43,833 bases of DNA, taken from positions 1 through 43,833 of the forward strand of contig JAZDGP010000004.1 of NCBI GenBank assembly GCA_043806935.1. Direction: 5' to 3'. The stretch is from a bacterium. GTDB lineage: Bacteria; Patescibacteriota; Patescibacteriia; JAZDGP01. Position numbers and translations under genes: made by a program. The notes under the pieces were generated by a model that saw only the letters and a program-made list of their open reading frames with translations, was not told the DNA's origin and ran no database searches. Below, in pieces: positions 14,322 to 21,515 of this stretch; position 1 is the stretch's first letter; the number at the start of each line of letters is the position of its first letter.

Positions 14322-17300
14322 ATGCCAACAACAGACCAAACAGTGGCGGACGATTCCGCCTCCAAATCTTCCACCGCGTTTACTGGTAAGATAAACCTTA
14401 TTTCCAAGCAGTCTGGAATGGCCTCTTTGGCTGATGTATTGGCGGAAACGTACAACAAAGCTACCGCGAGCACTATTAAGTACGTGCTGGAACCCAATGG
14501 TTCTTTGCGTTCTTTTGACCAGGAACGCATTTTTGATTCTTTAATAGTTGCCATGGAGCTGTCTGATAGCGTGGATCGGCATTTGGCCCAGAATCTGGCC
14601 AACCAGGTGGTATTACGTTTGGTTGACGAGTTTGACGGCAAGGTAGTGCCTAGATTGTCTGATATCAAAGATCGGGTTAATTTAGTGCTGTTGGACAATA
14701 ATTTGCTTGATTTAGCCAGAGCGTATATTGCCAGCCAGGGCAATGATATTCTGCCAAAGGATTTAGACCCTCATTATAATCCTAAAGGGCTTACAGTGAA
14801 GCGTTTCTTTACTGTTGAAGGAATCCATCCGTATGGCCAGATTGAATGGGAACAGCGGTCAGCTGTTATTACTAACGAAAAGGGAGAAAAAGTGTTCTCA
14901 CAGGAGGACGTGGAAGCGCCTAAGAGCTGGTCGCAGTCAGCGGTTAACATCGTGGTTTCTAAGTATTTTAGAGGAAAGATTGGAACTCCAGGAAGAGAAA
15001 CTTCAATTAAGCAGATGATAGATCGCGTGGCAAAGACCATTAGCGCTTGGGGCAGGAATGGCGGTTATTTTGCTTCCGCTGAAGACGCTTCTGTATTTGA
15101 AGATGAATTGACGTTCTTGTTGGTGAATCAGTACGCGGCGTTTAACAGTCCTGTTTGGTTTAACGTGGGAGTGGAAGTTAAACCGCAGTGTTCGGCGTGT
15201 TTTATCAACAAGGTGGATGACAATATGCGGTCAATACTGAACTTGGCGGTAACAGAAGGGATGCTGTTTAAAGGCGGATCAGGATCAGGGGCTAATTTAT
15301 CTTGCCTAAGGTCTTCCAAAGAGCACCTTAGGGGCAGTTCAGGAAAGTCATCAGGACCAGTGTCATTCATGAAAGGGCTGGATGCGTTTGCCGGGGTGAT
15401 CAAATCAGGAGGCAAGACAAGGCGTGCCGCTAAGATGGTGATTTTAAACATTGACCACCCTGATATTTTAGAATTCATTGACTGCAAAGCGCATGAGGAG
15501 AAAAAAGCTTGGGCTTTGATGGACGCTGGCTATGGCGGTGGGTTTAATGGCGAGGCGTACAGTTCCATATTCTTCCAGAACGCCAATAATTCAGTGAGAG
15601 TGACGGATGAGTACATGAAAGCTGTTGAAGAGGATAAGGAATGGAAAACAAAAGCAGTTACTACGGGAGACGTTGTTGACGCTTATAACGCGAAAGAGAT
15701 CATGAATAGAATAGCGGAAGCGGCTTGGCTGTGCGGTGATCCAGGACTTCAGTACGATACTGCCATTAACGATTGGCATACCTGCCCTAACAGCGGTAGG
15801 ATCAACGGATCTAATCCATGCTCTGAATATATGTTCTTGGATGACACTGCTTGCAATTTAGCTTCTTTGAACTTGATGAAGTTTAGAAAAACAGACGGTT
15901 CTTTTGACGTGGAAGCGTTTAAGATAGGAGTGGAAGTTATGATTACCGCTCAGGAGATCACAGTGGATTATTCCAGTTATCCAACTGACGATATTTCCCG
16001 CAATAGCCATTTGTTCCGCCCATTAGGCATGGGTTACGCCAATTTAGGAGCTTTGCTTATGGCCAGAGGCATTCCTTATGACAGTGAAGCTGGCAGGAAC
16101 ATGGCCTCGGTTATTACCAGCTTGATGACAGGCCACGCGTATTACCAATCAGCTAAGATGGCTAAAGGCTTGGGAACGTTTAGAGAGTATATAAAGAACA
16201 GGGACGCCATGATCAGGGTGATCAACAAGCATAGGAACGCCAGCTACCAGGTAAAGAGCGATGGCGTGGCTAAAGATTTGCTGACTGCGAGCCGAGAGGC
16301 GTGGGATAATGCTTTGAATTTAGGCACGGAAGCGGGGTACAAAAATTCCCAGGTTTCATTGTTAGCTCCTACCGGCACCATTGGCTTTTTAATGGATTGC
16401 GACACCACTGGCGTGGAGCCTGATATCGCGTTGGTTAAGTACAAGTGGCTGGTGGGCGGAGGGCTGATGAAACTGGTCAATACTACTGTGCCTGAAGCGT
16501 TGCAATCTTTGGGGTATGATGAAAATCAGATCAAAGACATTTTATCTTACATTAACCAGCACGACACCATTGAAGGAGCTCCTAATTTGAGAGCCGAGCA
16601 TCTTCTAGTCTTTGACTGCGCTTTTAAACCACAGCAAGGCAATCGTACCATCCACTACCTTGGCCATATCCGCATGATGGCAGCTGTACAACCATTTTTG
16701 TCAGGAGCGATCTCTAAGACTGTTAACATGCCGCAGAACAGCACGCTTCAAGACATTATTGACGCTTACATGCTTGGCTGGAGGTCTGGGCTTAAAGCAT
16801 TGGCAGTGTATAGGGATGGGTCCAAACGGTTGCAGCCGCTCACTACTGGCAAGAGTTCTGACGCGTCAGGCAAGAGCGAAACGAAACTGGAAATGAAGGC
16901 TGAAGCGATTGTACCTGTCGCTCAGCCAGTGCGGAGGAGATTGCCAGCGGAGCGCCAGTCATTGACGCATAAGTTTTCCATTGCTGGCCATGACGGTTAT
17001 CTTACAGTAGGCATGTATGATGATGGCAAACCAGGGGAGATATTTGTCCGAATGTCCAAGGCAGGGAGCGTCATCTCTGGACTCATGGAATCCTTTGCCA
17101 TTGCAGTGTCATTGGCTTTGCAGTACGGCGTTCCCTTGAAGGTATTAGTCAATAAGTTCTCTCACGTCCGTTTTGAACCTTCCGGCTACACCACTAACCC
17201 GCAGATCAGGATCGCCAAGTCAATCGTGGATTATATCTTTAGGTGGCTGGCCAGCAAGTTTTTGCCAAAGGAAGATCAGGTGATAGTAGGCGTGCAGATC

Positions 17301-17504
17301 AAAGAGCTGGAGGAAGACACGCCAGCAGTGTCCGCTACCTTGGAGCTTGCAATGGAAGAAGCTAGGGCTAATGACAGCCAGATGAAGATAGTTTTTGACA
17401 ACCAAGCTGACGCTCCTGTTTGCGACACCTGCGGGTCAATCATGGTGAGGAACGCTTCTTGCTATAAGTGCTTGAATTGCGGATCCACTAGCGGTTGTTC
17501 TTAG
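14322..17504 (+). CDS. nrdJ: class II (AdoCbl-dependent) ribonucleotide reductase with ATP-cone-like N-terminus and TSCPD/Zn-ribbon C-terminus
   Basis: FNSPVWFN, QCSACFI, NPCSE, APTGT, YRDGSK, C-terminal CDTCG..CLNCG. Confidence 0.95.
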   Translation: MPTTDQTVADDSASKSSTAFTGKINLISKQSGMASLADVLAETYNKATASTIKYVLEPNGSLRSFDQERIFDSLIVAMELSDSVDRHLAQNLANQVVLRLVDEFDGKVVPRLSDIKDRVNLVLLDNNLLDLARAYIASQGNDILPKDLDPHYNPKGLTVKRFFTVEGIHPYGQIEWEQRSAVITNEKGEKVFSQEDVEAPKSWSQSAVNIVVSKYFRGKIGTPGRETSIKQMIDRVAKTISAWGRNGGYFASAEDASVFEDELTFLLVNQYAAFNSPVWFNVGVEVKPQCSACFINKVDDNMRSILNLAVTEGMLFKGGSGSGANLSCLRSSKEHLRGSSGKSSGPVSFMKGLDAFAGVIKSGGKTRRAAKMVILNIDHPDILEFIDCKAHEEKKAWALMDAGYGGGFNGEAYSSIFFQNANNSVRVTDEYMKAVEEDKEWKTKAVTTGDVVDAYNAKEIMNRIAEAAWLCGDPGLQYDTAINDWHTCPNSGRINGSNPCSEYMFLDDTACNLASLNLMKFRKTDGSFDVEAFKIGVEVMITAQEITVDYSSYPTDDISRNSHLFRPLGMGYANLGALLMARGIPYDSEAGRNMASVITSLMTGHAYYQSAKMAKGLGTFREYIKNRDAMIRVINKHRNASYQVKSDGVAKDLLTASREAWDNALNLGTEAGYKNSQVSLLAPTGTIGFLMDCDTTGVEPDIALVKYKWLVGGGLMKLVNTTVPEALQSLGYDENQIKDILSYINQHDTIEGAPNLRAEHLLVFDCAFKPQQGNRTIHYLGHIRMMAAVQPFLSGAISKTVNMPQNSTLQDIIDAYMLGWRSGLKALAVYRDGSKRLQPLTTGKSSDASGKSETKLEMKAEAIVPVAQPVRRRLPAERQSLTHKFSIAGHDGYLTVGMYDDGKPGEIFVRMSKAGSVISGLMESFAIAVSLALQYGVPLKVLVNKFSHVRFEPSGYTTNPQIRIAKSIVDYIFRWLASKFLPKEDQVIVGVQIKELEEDTPAVSATLELAMEEARANDSQMKIVFDNQADAPVCDTCGSIMVRNASCYKCLNCGSTSGCS

Positions 17505-17571
17505 AATTAGTTAAGCTAGCAATAGCGCCAGTGATGGCATCCATGCTTGGCCACCACTGGCGCTGTCTATT

Positions 17572-18114
17572 ATGACTAAGGGAATGATCCAAACGTACAC
17601 AGGAGAGGGCAAGGGCAAGACAACAGCCGCTTTAGGGCTGGTTATTAGGGCGTTGGGCAATGGTTTACGGGTAGGAATAGTTTATTTTGATAAGGGAGGT
17701 GAGTTTTATAATGAACGGAAGCTGTTGAATAAATTGATTGAGATTGGTTTGCCATTGCTATATGAAGCAACTGGCCTTCTTCGTTTTGATCCCGCGGCCA
17801 AGACCTTTAGGTTTGGAGTGAATGATGGCGATAAGAAAGAAGCGGAGCGAGGGTTAGTATTAGCCAAACAATTATCTAGTTGTGTTGATTTACTGATCTT
17901 AGACGAGCTTAATTCTACTGTGTCGTTGGGCATGCTGGTCGTGGAATCAGTGGTTGTTTTCTTAAAAGACAAGCCAGAGGGTTTGGAAGTTGTTTTAACT
18001 GGCAGGCAGGCGCCCAAAGAAATTATAGAATTAGCTGATCTGGTTACAGAAATGAAGATGGTGAAACATTATTACAAGCAGGGGGTGGAAGCTAGAGAAG
18101 GGATAGAGTATTGA
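17572..18114 (+). CDS. cobO: cob(I)alamin adenosyltransferase CobA/CobO/BtuR
   Basis: YTGEGKGKTTAALG, LILDE, EVVLTGR, ADLVTEM, GIEY. Confidence 0.93.
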   Translation: MTKGMIQTYTGEGKGKTTAALGLVIRALGNGLRVGIVYFDKGGEFYNERKLLNKLIEIGLPLLYEATGLLRFDPAAKTFRFGVNDGDKKEAERGLVLAKQLSSCVDLLILDELNSTVSLGMLVVESVVVFLKDKPEGLEVVLTGRQAPKEIIELADLVTEMKMVKHYYKQGVEAREGIEY

Positions 18115-18156
18115 CATATTTTGTAGATATGCTATAATTATAACAATAAGAACATC
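18106..18156 (+). repeat. 51-bp exact direct repeat copy 1, contains promoter TTGACA-16-(TGc)TATAAT
   Basis: identical to 18893-18943. Confidence 0.95.
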
Positions 18157-18229
18157 AAAATAACTTAAAAATTTCTTTAGATTAAGCCAATTTTGGCGTT
18201 AATTTAAAGGATATTTATTGGAGGATCAA

Positions 18230-18790
18230 ATGAAATCATTATTATTGTATGTAATAACTTTTGTGGTTTTATCTTCAAACGTATTCGCCCAAAACAGCCT
18301 TTTTGTTGAAAGCGAGTATAAGTATTCTGATGATCCGTCTGTAATCACTTACAGATTAGGAGCCAAACACGACTTTAATAGTAAAATCAGCTTCAGTTCT
18401 TTTGGGCTGGTGAACAAGAATTATGCTCAGGCTCATTTCAGCATCAATTACAAAATCACTGATTGGTTAAAGGCAGGAGTTGGCCAGGGAATAGAGCAAT
18501 CAAAAGAATTGTGGAGATTGGCAGCTAATCTGCAAATAATGAATGGGAGTTATAGTTGGGTTACTTTCTATGAACACGGGATGAATGGATATTGGTTTCA
18601 AACGGAATTAAAATATCAATTCAATCCATCTCTAAGTGTTGGGATCTTTGGCAGAAGATTTGTCGGGTTTGGACCAGAGATAGCGATAGCGATTCCGCAA
18701 ACACCTTTTGTTGTATGGACCGTGCCATACGCTTATGATATTGAAAGTAAAAAAAGCGGTGGTTTGATAGTTATTTTGTTACTGTTTTGA
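18230..18790 (+). CDS. secreted beta-barrel-like protein
   Basis: GGAGG SD, signal peptide ending VFA/Q, alternating aromatic/hydrophobic strands, C-terminal Phe. Confidence 0.65.
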   Translation: MKSLLLYVITFVVLSSNVFAQNSLFVESEYKYSDDPSVITYRLGAKHDFNSKISFSSFGLVNKNYAQAHFSINYKITDWLKAGVGQGIEQSKELWRLAANLQIMNGSYSWVTFYEHGMNGYWFQTELKYQFNPSLSVGIFGRRFVGFGPEIAIAIPQTPFVVWTVPYAYDIESKKSGGLIVILLLF

Positions 18791-18796
18791 TTCGTA

Positions 18797-18837
18797 AAGT
18801 CCTGTTTTATTAAAAGTAAAACAGGACTTTTGTTTTT
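18797..18837 (+). terminator. intrinsic terminator
   Basis: AAAGTCCTGTTTTA/TAAAACAGGACTTT stem plus T-tract. Confidence 0.8.
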
Positions 18838-18892
18838 ATAATGCTATTTCCACAAATCTTATAAAAGCCATCCTTTGCCATGATTATTTATT

Positions 18893-18943
18893 GAGTATTG
18901 ACATATTTTGTAGATATGCTATAATTATAACAATAAGAACATC
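18893..18943 (+). repeat. 51-bp exact direct repeat copy 2 (promoter), followed by a tandem extra TAAGAACATC
   Basis: identical to 18106-18156. Confidence 0.95.
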
Positions 18944-19022
18944 TAAGAACATCCCTAAAATCAGCTGAATAAATCATCCAAATAATTGATTTATTCAGCG
19001 ATTTAAAATAAAGGAGAACACA

Positions 19023-19352
19023 ATGAAATATTTTAACACGACTCTTGGGCTTTCTATGCTTCCGGATGGAAAGTTTTACGTAGTCACTGTTGATGCTGAT
19101 GCCGCAAAATGTTTTTTCTCTTCTAATGATATTCAAAATATCGCTAATCCAACACATGCCAATAGTCTTCAAGCTATTATTCAAAAACTGGGCGTAGATG
19201 TTAGAGACGCCAAGGGTGGTAGAATTAGGTTAAGTTCAGGTGACCAATGTCTAATTGCGGAGATTTCTGGCATTCCTCGTGAAACCCGTGAATTTTCTGA
19301 TACTGAAATTGCCAGTGCGGTATTTAATTTTCGTATAGTCGAAGTATTATAA
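19023..19352 (+). CDS. DUF1874 (STIV B116/YddF/AcrIII-1)-like protein
   Basis: 109 aa; YFNTTLGLSML start, His45, KLGVDV...RIRLSSGDQCLI, PRE...EI, FRIVEV layout. Confidence 0.6.
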   Translation: MKYFNTTLGLSMLPDGKFYVVTVDADAAKCFFSSNDIQNIANPTHANSLQAIIQKLGVDVRDAKGGRIRLSSGDQCLIAEISGIPRETREFSDTEIASAVFNFRIVEVL

Positions 19353-19371
19353 CGTTTTTATTTGAAGTTGT

Positions 19372-19407
19372 ACCCCCTAGTATTATCTTAGGGGGTTTTG
19401 TATTTTT
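19372..19407 (+). terminator. intrinsic terminator
   Basis: ACCCCCTA/TAGGGGGT stem plus T-tract. Confidence 0.75.
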
Positions 19408-19472
19408 GGAGTTCTCTTTGTAAATTAGTTAGTTCCTTGTTTTTTACAGTCAGTGATGTTTTAATACCTAAC

Positions 19473-20024
19473 ATGATTAATCAACAAGAATCGTTTACAC
19501 CCATTAATATGGAGCAAACGCTAACCGAAGAAAAGATAGCAGAACTAGTTACAGAAGTTAAAGCAATGATAGCTCCTTTTTATAATGCCATTGAACAAGC
19601 TAGGAAAGCTAATGCGGACAGAGAAGTAGGAGGAAGGATTAAATCTGGCAAATTACAATTTATGGATGAATCGCAGTGGCTGAGCAGTTCGGTGGTCGGT
19701 GAATTTCATGAAGAGGAAAGAAAAATAACTAAAGACGGTTGGCTTACTTTCCATACGCATCCGGTAGCTGGCCTACCCCATGAATCAGCAGCTGATATCC
19801 TAGCGGCTTATTATCGTTTGCGGGAAGTGATTATTCATGAACAAGGTATTACTTTACTGATCGCTTTGAAAGAATTGCCAGTGGATATAATCACTAAATT
19901 GGACGAACAAGCTTGGAAGGAAGCGCAATTAGAAGAAGAAAAAAGCGGAGAGCAAGCGTATTGGTTTTGGAAAGGTATTCTTCAACAAAAACTGCCGGTA
20001 CGGGTCGTTAATTTTAAACTATAA
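19473..20024 (+). CDS. JAB/MPN-like metalloprotein
   Basis: REVGG...FHTHP-x7-SAAD resembles the JAMM motif; start uncertain (19473 or 19509). Confidence 0.6.
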   Translation: MINQQESFTPINMEQTLTEEKIAELVTEVKAMIAPFYNAIEQARKANADREVGGRIKSGKLQFMDESQWLSSSVVGEFHEEERKITKDGWLTFHTHPVAGLPHESAADILAAYYRLREVIIHEQGITLLIALKELPVDIITKLDEQAWKEAQLEEEKSGEQAYWFWKGILQQKLPVRVVNFKL

Positions 20025-20157
20025 ATACCGGAAACGTTATTATTACTTTAGAAGTTATGATGGGCTCGAATTATTCGCTCACTTTATTATGTTTTTAGTA
20101 TTTTATACTATACTACCCTTATAAAGGTTGTCCTTTACTATGGTTATTTATGGAGCA

Positions 20158-20186
20158 TTGACAACATTAAATTATCGTGATAAGGT
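20158..20186 (+). promoter_or_regulatory. sigma70-type promoter TTGACA-17-(TGa)TAAGGT
   Basis: consensus match; upstream 46 nt homologous to 18858-18903. Confidence 0.65.
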
Positions 20187-20240
20187 GTTTAGTCATTTAG
20201 AACATTGAGTTCTGGTGATCAAAAACATTTGGAGGTTAAC

Positions 20241-21185
20241 ATGAAATCATTATTGTATGTAATAACCATTGTGGCGCTATCTTCAAGCATATTTGCTCAA
20301 CAATCTATTCGCATTGACGGTTTTGTTCATTTGCTGGACGGTTACAGTAAAACACCAATCGGCGGGCAGGTACAACGTTCCATGGTTAAACTGAGGTTAA
20401 ATAACGCTCAATATGGAGCAGTGGTTAACTTTGATTTAGCTGGACCACGGTTGTTGCACAATGCTTTTATCTGGTTCGGTCTTCCTCCTTTCGGTTTTGT
20501 CAATTCGTTTAAAATTTCTTTTGGGAAGACGATTCCGATTTTTGGAAACAACTATCCATTGTATCCTTCTGAAATTATCTTGATCAACTTTAATCCAAGC
20601 GCTAGTAAGATGTTGACTGTCAGGGATGTTGGCCTGAGTGCTCAATGGGAAACTCCTTGGGTTAAGGGCATTTGTTCCATCACTAATGGGACGGATACAA
20701 GGCTGGTTAATGGAGGAGACAACAATAATTCAAGAGACATTTCTCTCAGGTTGGTTAAAAAGTTTTGGTTTTTTTCGGTGGCGGCCAGCGCTCGTTTTGC
20801 TGATGCTGATTTTGCCAAGAGGCTGATTGGAGCGGATATAGAAGTTGCTTATGATAGTTTGAAAATAATATCCGAAATCATCCTCTCAAACATTGCTGGA
20901 TTTCCGGTGCTCGGGCAAACAAATGCGTTGATGTTGAACGCGGGTAATAAAGAATCAGTAGGTTTGAATGTAATGGGCGTTTATTCTTTTTCCCCTTGTG
21001 AATTTATCGCTGATTTTGATCATTACCATTCGGTGGTTAGCACTGAGCAAACGTATACATTTGGTATTAACTACCACTTGTCAAAACAGGTGAGATTTGC
21101 AGTAAATTGTATTCAGGTTGAAAATAAAACAACTGGCATTGAACGTAAAGTTTTATCCCAGTTGGAATACAAAATTAGTATTTAA
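20241..21185 (+). CDS. secreted porin-like (OprO/OprP-like) beta-barrel protein
   Basis: GGAGG SD, signal peptide, RDVGL...ITNG...DNNNSRDISLRL motif, YTFGINYH, QLEYKI terminal strand. Confidence 0.6.
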   Translation: MKSLLYVITIVALSSSIFAQQSIRIDGFVHLLDGYSKTPIGGQVQRSMVKLRLNNAQYGAVVNFDLAGPRLLHNAFIWFGLPPFGFVNSFKISFGKTIPIFGNNYPLYPSEIILINFNPSASKMLTVRDVGLSAQWETPWVKGICSITNGTDTRLVNGGDNNNSRDISLRLVKKFWFFSVAASARFADADFAKRLIGADIEVAYDSLKIISEIILSNIAGFPVLGQTNALMLNAGNKESVGLNVMGVYSFSPCEFIADFDHYHSVVSTEQTYTFGINYHLSKQVRFAVNCIQVENKTTGIERKVLSQLEYKISI

Positions 21186-21212: not shown

Positions 21213-21251
21213 AAAGTCCCGTTTCGTTGATTGAGACGGGATTTTTGTTTT
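21213..21251 (+). terminator. intrinsic terminator
   Basis: AAAGTCCCGTTTC/GAGACGGGATTTT stem plus T-tract. Confidence 0.75.
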
Positions 21252-21311
21252 CATGCTATGCTATCCATACAAAGGTCGTTCTTTTTTATAATCACTATTA
21301 ACCTTATTTAT

Positions 21312-21515
21312 ATGGATCAAATGATGGAACAAAATAAGTCATGTTCCTGTACGCACCATAAGTTCGTGCCATTTCTTATTTTCTTGTTTGGTTTGCTATT
21401 CCTGCTAGGCAATCTGGGCGTGCTAGGGCAAGGATTAGTGGACATTGTCTGGCCGATCCTAGTGCTGCTTGGCGGTTTGTCCATGATGACCAGCGGTAAG
21501 TGCAAGTGCTGCTAA
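21312..21515 (+). CDS. small 2-TM protein (LiaF/DUF5668-like) with Cys-rich ends
   Basis: GLLFLLGNLG...WPILVLLGG; CSCTHH and CKCC. Confidence 0.7.
   Translation: MDQMMEQNKSCSCTHHKFVPFLIFLFGLLFLLGNLGVLGQGLVDIVWPILVLLGGLSMMTSGKCKCC

Follow-up and report, generated by a model that had tools for sequence, protein, structure and literature searches.

Two exported barrel-type proteins encoded in a low-GC island

The stretch of DNA analysed here, referred to as the window, is a complete 43.8-kb contig (JAZDGP010000004.1) of the Patescibacteria genome G000, and internal to it lies a 3.4-kb island (~18.1-21.5 kb) of low guanine plus cytosine (GC) content. Two genes of this island, both on the forward strand, encode proteins that, as judged from fold models, are Sec-type-exported beta-barrels of the outer-membrane type. 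The first, P0001 (18230..18790, 186 amino acids, aa), is a predicted exported small barrel of an unnamed family with a C-terminal Phe, while the second, P0002 (20241..21185, 314 aa), is a predicted exported 16-stranded OprO/OprP-type porin ending in ...YKISI. The four main genes of the island have GC values of 0.37-0.39, corresponding to the 3rd-7th percentile of 403 long open reading frames (ORFs), and the island is flanked by housekeeping genes, namely those for a class II ribonucleotide reductase and a corrinoid adenosyltransferase on one side, and for a beta-CASP nuclease, NifU and MraY on the other.

When extended to their first TTG codons the two ORFs span 18218..18790 and 20205..21185, respectively, but the ATG codons at 18230 and 20241 are the likely starts because a GGAGG sits 5-6 nucleotides (nt) before each of them. 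The N-termini encoded from these positions resemble signal peptides by eye, MKSLLLYVITFVVLSSNVFA for P0001 and MKSLLYVITIVALSSSIFA for P0002, both ending in FA with a Q following the putative cleavage point, and neither contains the Cys of a lipobox, also by eye. The ORF list and the GGAGG spacing thus bear out the original prediction of two ORFs with signal peptides at this place, with cleavage judged by eye.

Both genes share expression elements. The signal peptides are identical at 17 of 27 positions, and direct comparison of the DNA encompassing the ribosome-binding site (RBS, GGAGG) and the signal peptide of P0001 (18218..18292, forward strand) with that of P0002 (20229..20300, forward strand) gave 82-88% nucleotide identity, the remainder of the genes being unrelated. 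A 57-nt promoter module upstream of P0001 (copy 1, 18103..18159, forward strand; TTGACA-16 nt-TG-TATAAT, 12/12 consensus) is 96% identical to copy 2 (18890..18946, forward strand), located upstream of the ORF at 19023-19352, and copy 3, on the reverse strand of contig C46 (838-878), precedes a 188-aa membrane ORF without known relatives. This module contains a perfect extended -10 sigma-70 promoter, and its three copies in the genome each lie before an accessory ORF. A candidate promoter of P0002 was recognized by eye at 20158..20186 (forward strand; TTGACA, 17 nt, TG-extended weak -10 TAAGGT), being absent from the promoter scan output. Similar hairpins of the intrinsic-terminator type follow P0001 (18796..18830) and P0002 (21213..21245), both on the forward strand.

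The sharing of RBS/signal-peptide, promoter and terminator modules therefore indicates that they were copied within the G000 genome. Since the island has housekeeping flanks and its promoter module recurs on contig C46, the sequence context also identifies the barrel genes as apparently native to G000 rather than as contaminants. The two barrel families are not treated as related, because alignment of their profiles with hhalign (A4 versus A3, 61% probability) covers only the signal peptide and the first strands.

P0002 is a divergent relative of the OprO/OprP porins

An OprO/P-like motif had been proposed for P0002, and its residues R128, D129, G131, N149, G150, D160, N162 and D166 turned out to be invariant in an alignment of 13 sequences (A3). 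A phmmer search with P0002 over 1.84 billion representatives returned seven proteins at E<=0.001, query included, five of which are homologues of 295-309 aa with signal peptides (E 2.8e-24 to 1.7e-4). P0005, a 3015-aa PKD-repeat protein with only a 38-residue stretch aligned, was dropped as a relative, and so were the candidate porin loci L006-L010, which encode periplasmic binding proteins sharing one peptide pattern. The word-index search with P0002 recovered only the query itself among 1638 candidates, the search with alignment A2 recovered only P0008 and P0002, and P0004 as query gave no match against the genome contigs.

The cut-off of the Porin_O_P family (PF07396, 20.9 bits) is passed by three of the five homologues, P0004 (29.6 bits), P0006 (36.9 bits) and P0008 (51.9 bits). 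P0002 itself falls below it, being unlisted at E<=1 and reaching 11.4 bits in the six-frame search, and also shows a sub-threshold match to Porin_4 (24.5 bits vs a cut-off of 27, E 2.8e-5). When the 13-sequence profile was compared with the Protein Data Bank (PDB), OprP (2o4v, E 2.1e-5) and OprO (4rjx, E 3e-5) were matched, all OprP/OprO matches having E values of 2e-5 to 1e-4 and the next one only 0.22, with the alignment to OprP covering C-terminal strands only.

Structure prediction points in the same direction. AlphaFold2 supplied with the 13 sequences folded P0002 into a barrel of 16 strands (predicted local distance difference test, pLDDT, 73; predicted template modelling score, pTM, 0.68), whereas from the single sequence the pLDDT was 33. 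The top PDB matches of this model in Foldseek are all outer-membrane porins, with template modelling (TM) scores by query (TMq) of 0.66-0.67 to OprP/OprO. Using VIA-align it superposes on OprP 2o4v with Z 22.9 and a root-mean-square deviation of 2.7 A over 269 residues, and on OprO with Z 22.8 and 22.7, general porins remaining behind at Z 20.6-22. In the ESM Atlas, the structures neighbouring the model of P0002 (pTM 0.73) are Porin_O_P clusters (TM 0.81-0.84). Relative to its homologues, P0002 carries a 17-residue insertion and ends in ...QLEYKISI, thus without the terminal Phe that is present in 11 of the 13 aligned rows. Altogether, sequence and model concur in presenting P0002 as a divergent, 16-stranded relative of the OprO/OprP porin superfamily; it is called a relative, not a member, because it falls below the Pfam threshold and its producer lacks the barrel assembly machinery (BAM).

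P0001 represents an unnamed family of predicted small barrels

P0001 has no Pfam, NCBIfam, PHROGs or PADLOC family, and the word-index search recovered only the query among 147 candidates. Its ESM Atlas model (pTM 0.76, pLDDT 0.80) is nonetheless a barrel, with unnamed clusters of 176-179 aa as nearest Atlas neighbours (TM 0.84-0.86), followed by KdgM/NanC porin clusters (TM 0.75-0.79). When 400 other genomes of the phylum were searched in six frames, relatives were detected in 9 of them with the single protein (E<=0.01, seven having E values of 2e-5 or below) and, using the family profile, in 12, of which seven had themselves contributed rows to that profile. These ORFs, 181-250 aa long, start with signal peptides and have GSGFWY and RRFxGxGP blocks in common. 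A terminal Phe is found in six of the eight aligned family members (A4), P0001 ending in ...ILLLF. None of the eight matches Pfam, including the KdgM/NanC family (PF06178), and the A4 profile found no match in the PDB. P0001 is therefore described, from its model, as a member of an unnamed small-barrel family with a KdgM/NanC-like fold.

The original expectation that both proteins fold as barrels agrees with these models, that of P0002 being the 16-stranded one with Z 22.9 to OprP. The amphipathic strands attributed to both on sequence grounds were recovered for P0001, whose period-2 hydrophobic moment has z 2.4 (17 of 500 shuffles reach the same value), but not for P0002, whose moment is not significant (z 1.25) even though its model has 16 strands.

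Within this family, the small-barrel copies of G289 (L121/L125) and G029 (L122) contain in-frame stops and are probably decaying genes, and G132 has three copies, two of them within one cluster.

The source genome lacks outer-membrane machinery

G000 comprises 701,928 bases in 51 contigs, with an estimated completeness of 96.3% and contamination of 0.78%. None of Omp85/BamA, LpxC, OEP/TolC, LptD, OmpH/Skp or TamB was found in it, while the control genomes of the same searches gave the expected result, the Thermotoga control having BamA. Ribosomal protein L30, which we take to be missing throughout the Candidate Phyla Radiation (CPR), was not found either. The nearest relatives of G000 in GTDB share only its class, genome sizes in its phylum are 0.5-2.1 Mb for every listed member, and the Omp85 cut-off was passed by none of 301 sampled genomes of the phylum, one of them showing an 18-bit sub-threshold match.

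The very small genome (0.70 Mb), the absence of L30 and the lack of outer-membrane genes mark G000 as CPR/Patescibacteria-like, as had been presumed, murA identities of 50-61% between genomes of its phylum and MAGs titled Patescibacteria being suggestive but not decisive, and the presumed absence of BamA and lipopolysaccharide (LPS) genes likewise holds, neither Omp85 nor LpxC being found at this completeness. G000 does not, then, look like a producer that encodes BamA/Omp85 and has an outer membrane, and CPR bacteria are described as devoid of one in the available portions of PMC6744442, PMC12102498 and 10.1101/2021.05.31.446380.

A Patescibacteria MurA query (tblastn and HMMER six-frame) did not find murA in G000, yet MraY and FtsEX are encoded in the window; the same query gave no match in 8 of 100 other genomes of the phylum sample.

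Relatives in the phylum, selection and regulators

The porin type was found in two of 400 other genomes of the phylum, G329 and G407, and G061 is a further carrier. The former two belong to one genus (g285), are 0.6-0.8 Mb in size and 100% complete, and have syntenic porin-like genes of 297 and 301 aa ending in ...LFRF, located beside ComM-like and DksA-like genes. The porin-like ORF of G061 (302 aa) ends in ...KGKE and has no counterpart in the 40 relatives of this genome. Omp85 was found in none of G061, G329 and G407. According to BLASTP, the porin-type relatives constitute three deeply separate lineages, and the Pfam Porin_O_P model matched none of 271 phylum genomes.

An additional relative is encoded in metagenome contig L002, where a porin 93% identical to P0003 adjoins murA. 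This murA shares 89-91% identity with the genes of three metagenome-assembled genomes (MAGs) bearing the title 'Patescibacteria group bacterium', and 70-76% with those of Parcubacteria and Falkowbacteria MAGs, its placement relying on the top matches only (89-91%) among 80 records. None of the 80 murA loci has the porin. Regarding the titles of these records, 39 name CPR groups, 30 'uncultured Gammaproteobacteria', 10 a plain 'bacterium' and 1 Nanoarchaeia; the 30 Gammaproteobacteria titles look like mislabels, and one of them is a 1.0-Mb chromosome (loci L012-L091).

Codon comparisons gave a nonsynonymous to synonymous rate ratio (dN/dS) of 0.20 for the porins of L002 and L003 (dS 0.61) and of ~0.09 for those of G329 and G407, in this case with saturated dS, indicating that porin-type relatives in the phylum are under purifying selection. 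The porins of G329 (L093:1489-2394) and G407 (L094:1486-2379) are only 55% identical in amino acids, while the flanking ComM-like and DksA-like proteins reach 93% and 82%, as would correspond to a fast-evolving gene of the surface type in g285.

A TrmB-family regulator adjoins the barrel gene in G132 (two loci), G177, G441, G289 and, for the porin type, G061, as well as weakly in G447. Barrel and TrmB genes are divergent in the four loci with strands checked (L092, L103, L104, L105), and the pairing also occurs at L126 and L121. No TrmB-family regulator was found beside the barrel genes of G000.

Other features of the island and its surroundings

The two remaining main genes of the island lie between the barrel genes on the forward strand. 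The ORF at 19023..19352 (109 aa) has no signal peptide and shows a weak full-length STIV_B116-like match (E 0.073). The ORF at 19398..20024 (208 aa), whose start is uncertain, was assigned no function by the family libraries; it contains FHTHPVAGLPHESAADI, which by eye resembles the JAB/MPN metalloprotease motif HxH...S..D, a likeness unsupported by library or PDB searches. A terminator-like hairpin (19372..19396, forward strand) separates both ORFs. A small membrane ORF (21231..21515, forward strand), LiaF-TM-like at 23.9 bits against a cut-off of 27, is the probable right edge of the island. LiaF/PspC-type membrane proteins near a porin gene also occur on L003 (853-3099), with a 748-aa PspC-DUF2807 protein and a PadR regulator, which may be coincidence.

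Island ORFs other than the barrels found nothing in PHROGs, PADLOC, NCBIfam or the PDB, no phage or defence family was matched in the island using PHROGs and PADLOC, and no relative of P0002 was found in the viral contig collection. One public DNA sequencing run, containing 0.05 of the query words, provided two 151-nt contigs inside P0002 (20706-21026) and a partial piece at 18019-18068, leaving the rest uncovered.

Before the island, positions 14322-18114 of the window encode a B12-dependent class II ribonucleotide reductase, with ATP-cone and C-terminal Cys-rich tail, followed by a corrinoid adenosyltransferase of the BtuR/CobO type, a tidy pair of enzyme and cofactor supply for so small a genome.

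Possible sites of action of the barrels

We infer, tentatively and at somewhat less than an even chance, that the barrels constitute a channel at the interface between symbiont and host, most simply in the outer membrane of a diderm host. The original suggestion of a nutrient conduit dependent on the machinery or membrane of a diderm host is partly supported, in that none of its refuting findings (non-barrel folds, BamA or LPS genes, a genome outside the CPR) was made, the use as a conduit being a proposal. The proteins would be made in the symbiont, be exported by Sec across the only membrane it has, and then serve as channels for passive diffusion, inserted into a lipid layer not built by the machinery of the cell itself. 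Were this layer the outer membrane of a diderm to which the symbiont is attached, solutes could pass through the barrels to the symbiont at the site of attachment. BAM substrates usually end in an aromatic residue, the beta-signal. Since the Phe characteristic of such C-termini is retained in most relatives, the BAM of the host could assemble those that end in Phe, whereas P0002, lacking it, may rely on spontaneous insertion. Considering (i) the patchy, accessory distribution of the genes, (ii) their fast evolution, (iii) the sugar-type regulators, and (iv) the conservation of a BAM-type Phe in a phylum devoid of BAM, a host-directed product would fit. A bolder formulation, in which barrels exported by some Patescibacteria have kept the BAM end and become part of the outer membrane of their diderm host, possibly through its BAM, as a feeding pore owned by the parasite, with G000 having two channel sizes on one island, is speculative and rather unlikely.

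Several observations weigh against a channel in the host. The P0002-type porin was found in none of the 60 other genomes of the class of G000, and no RNA sequencing run was listed with the island sequence. Two of the four Patescibacteria lineages have lost or lack the BAM-type terminus, as seen for P0002 (...KISI) and the G061 copy (...KGKE). We know of no route for an unfolded barrel from one cell into the periplasm or membrane of another, and insertion of a single-chain porin through the LPS leaflet from outside is, to our knowledge, unprecedented. Moreover, the host need not be a diderm, and the island may be a recent import into G000, as no close relative has it and its genes are in the lowest 3-7% for GC.

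The barrels might instead reside in the envelope of the bacterium itself and assemble there independently of BAM, either as a porin sheath or in an outer layer so far unrecognised, made of lipid or of protein and lipid, with the lipid possibly scavenged from the host. Sec signal peptides together with strong promoters of their own would fit a bulk envelope component, the porin gene is vertically kept at one locus in two g285 species, and the toga of Thermotoga offers a precedent for a porin-rich sheath, in the part available of PMC10160955. Thermotoga, however, has BamA, while searches of G000 for genes of lipid transport or chaperones, TamB, LptD and Skp among them, found none. Genes so rare and patchy (2/400 and 12/400 genomes; 0/60 and 0/40 close relatives) would be odd for a basic layer, and the accessible passages of PMC6744442 and PMC12102498 describe CPR bacteria as lacking an outer membrane, so that we regard this location as unlikely, though not far-fetched. 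A role as secreted weapons, with the barrels forming pores by which a host or competitor membrane becomes permeable, is decidedly improbable: it would agree with exported, fast-evolving proteins of the surface type (55% aa identity in g285 vs 82-93% for flanking genes) of accessory distribution, and excerpts of PMC12757748 and PMC12890168 describe outer-membrane proteins (OMPs) of pathogens acting in foreign membranes, but the folds match housekeeping diffusion channels instead of known beta-pore-forming toxins, and pairing with a sugar-type regulator, TrmB, better fits nutrient uptake.

The remaining alternatives concern the origin of the DNA. If the island were a recent import from a diderm donor, resembling the FCB (Fibrobacterota-Chlorobiota-Bacteroidota) group, or from a mobile element, the barrels would be idle in G000. 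Its GC of 0.37-0.39 (3rd-7th percentile), the presence of the porin in G000 alone among 61 genomes of the class, the mostly Bacteroidota clusters among the Atlas neighbours of both proteins, the loss of the terminal Phe in P0002 and the in-frame stops in two P0001 relatives (G289, G029) could be so explained. Nonetheless, both reading frames are intact, and homogenisation within the genome has affected the modules for signal peptide, RBS, promoter and terminator, which implies residence and probably use in G000. The closest relatives of P0002 by sequence do not come from diderms, at least one lying on a contig with a Patescibacteria-type murA, they are under purifying selection, and phage or defence families found no match, making an idle import fairly improbable. 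That diderm DNA was joined to a Patescibacteria contig by an assembly or binning artefact is hardly credible. Despite the GC drop within the island and the draft state of a genome in 51 contigs, housekeeping genes flank the island on either side within a single 43.8-kb contig, G000 has a further copy of the 57-nt promoter module on contig C46, related genes occupy housekeeping contexts in other genomes of the phylum, and estimated contamination is 0.78%.

Significance for the Patescibacteria

No description of porin-type barrels in CPR bacteria was found in the literature, supplements aside, which may be explained by the Pfam porin model finding none in 271 genomes; 'porin-cytochrome operons' in CPR MAGs have been flagged by an automated tool, as stated in the available part of PMC12153355. 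The 16-stranded OprO/P-type porin, the occurrence of two barrel types on one island and their common expression modules are new here.

A large share of bacterial diversity belongs to the Patescibacteria, which are treated as having a single membrane, and lack of outer-membrane components serves as a defining trait in the portions at hand of PMC6744442, PMC12102498 and 10.1101/2021.05.31.446380. The occurrence, in genomes without BamA, of porin-type barrels that are intact, selected and regulated means either that channels are placed in the membrane of another cell, which would be a new feeding mode for a symbiont, or that some Patescibacteria possess an outer layer and can assemble barrels independently of BAM. 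Both alternatives can be tested directly with these sequences.

Comparison with known systems

OprP and OprO, the phosphate and pyrophosphate porins of Pseudomonas aeruginosa (PF07396; 2o4v, 4rjx, 4rjw), are the best structural matches of P0002, both being 16-stranded and having the RDxG...NG...DxN..D block in common with it. P0002 differs from them in being ~100 residues shorter, in its identity of 10-13% to the solved chains, in lacking the terminal Phe, and in coming from a producer whose genome has neither BamA nor LPS genes. General trimeric porins (OmpF/OmpC, OmpU, PorB, Omp32, ChiP) share the 16-strand fold (Z 20.6-22; Foldseek E 1e-10 to 1e-7), but no sequence relation to P0002 is detectable beyond clan level.

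The small 12-stranded sugar-acid channels KdgM and NanC (PF06178) resemble the Atlas model of P0001 with a TM of 0.75-0.79 by query, and P0001 is like them small, monomer-sized and terminated by Phe. On the contrary, it is ~60 residues shorter and its family has no PF06178 match.

Among phage proteins of the porin family, a Uroviricota cluster of the ESM Atlas is a structural neighbour of P0002 at TM 0.81, showing that mobile DNA can carry porin genes; unlike phage-encoded porins, no ORF of the island has a match in PHROGs. Finally, although their diderm producers assemble them with their own BAM, and the organelles they target possess a BAM homologue, Neisseria PorB and chlamydial OmpA in host mitochondria, as reported in the available parts of PMC12757748 and PMC12890168, provide a precedent for a barrel of the OMP type in the membrane of another cell.

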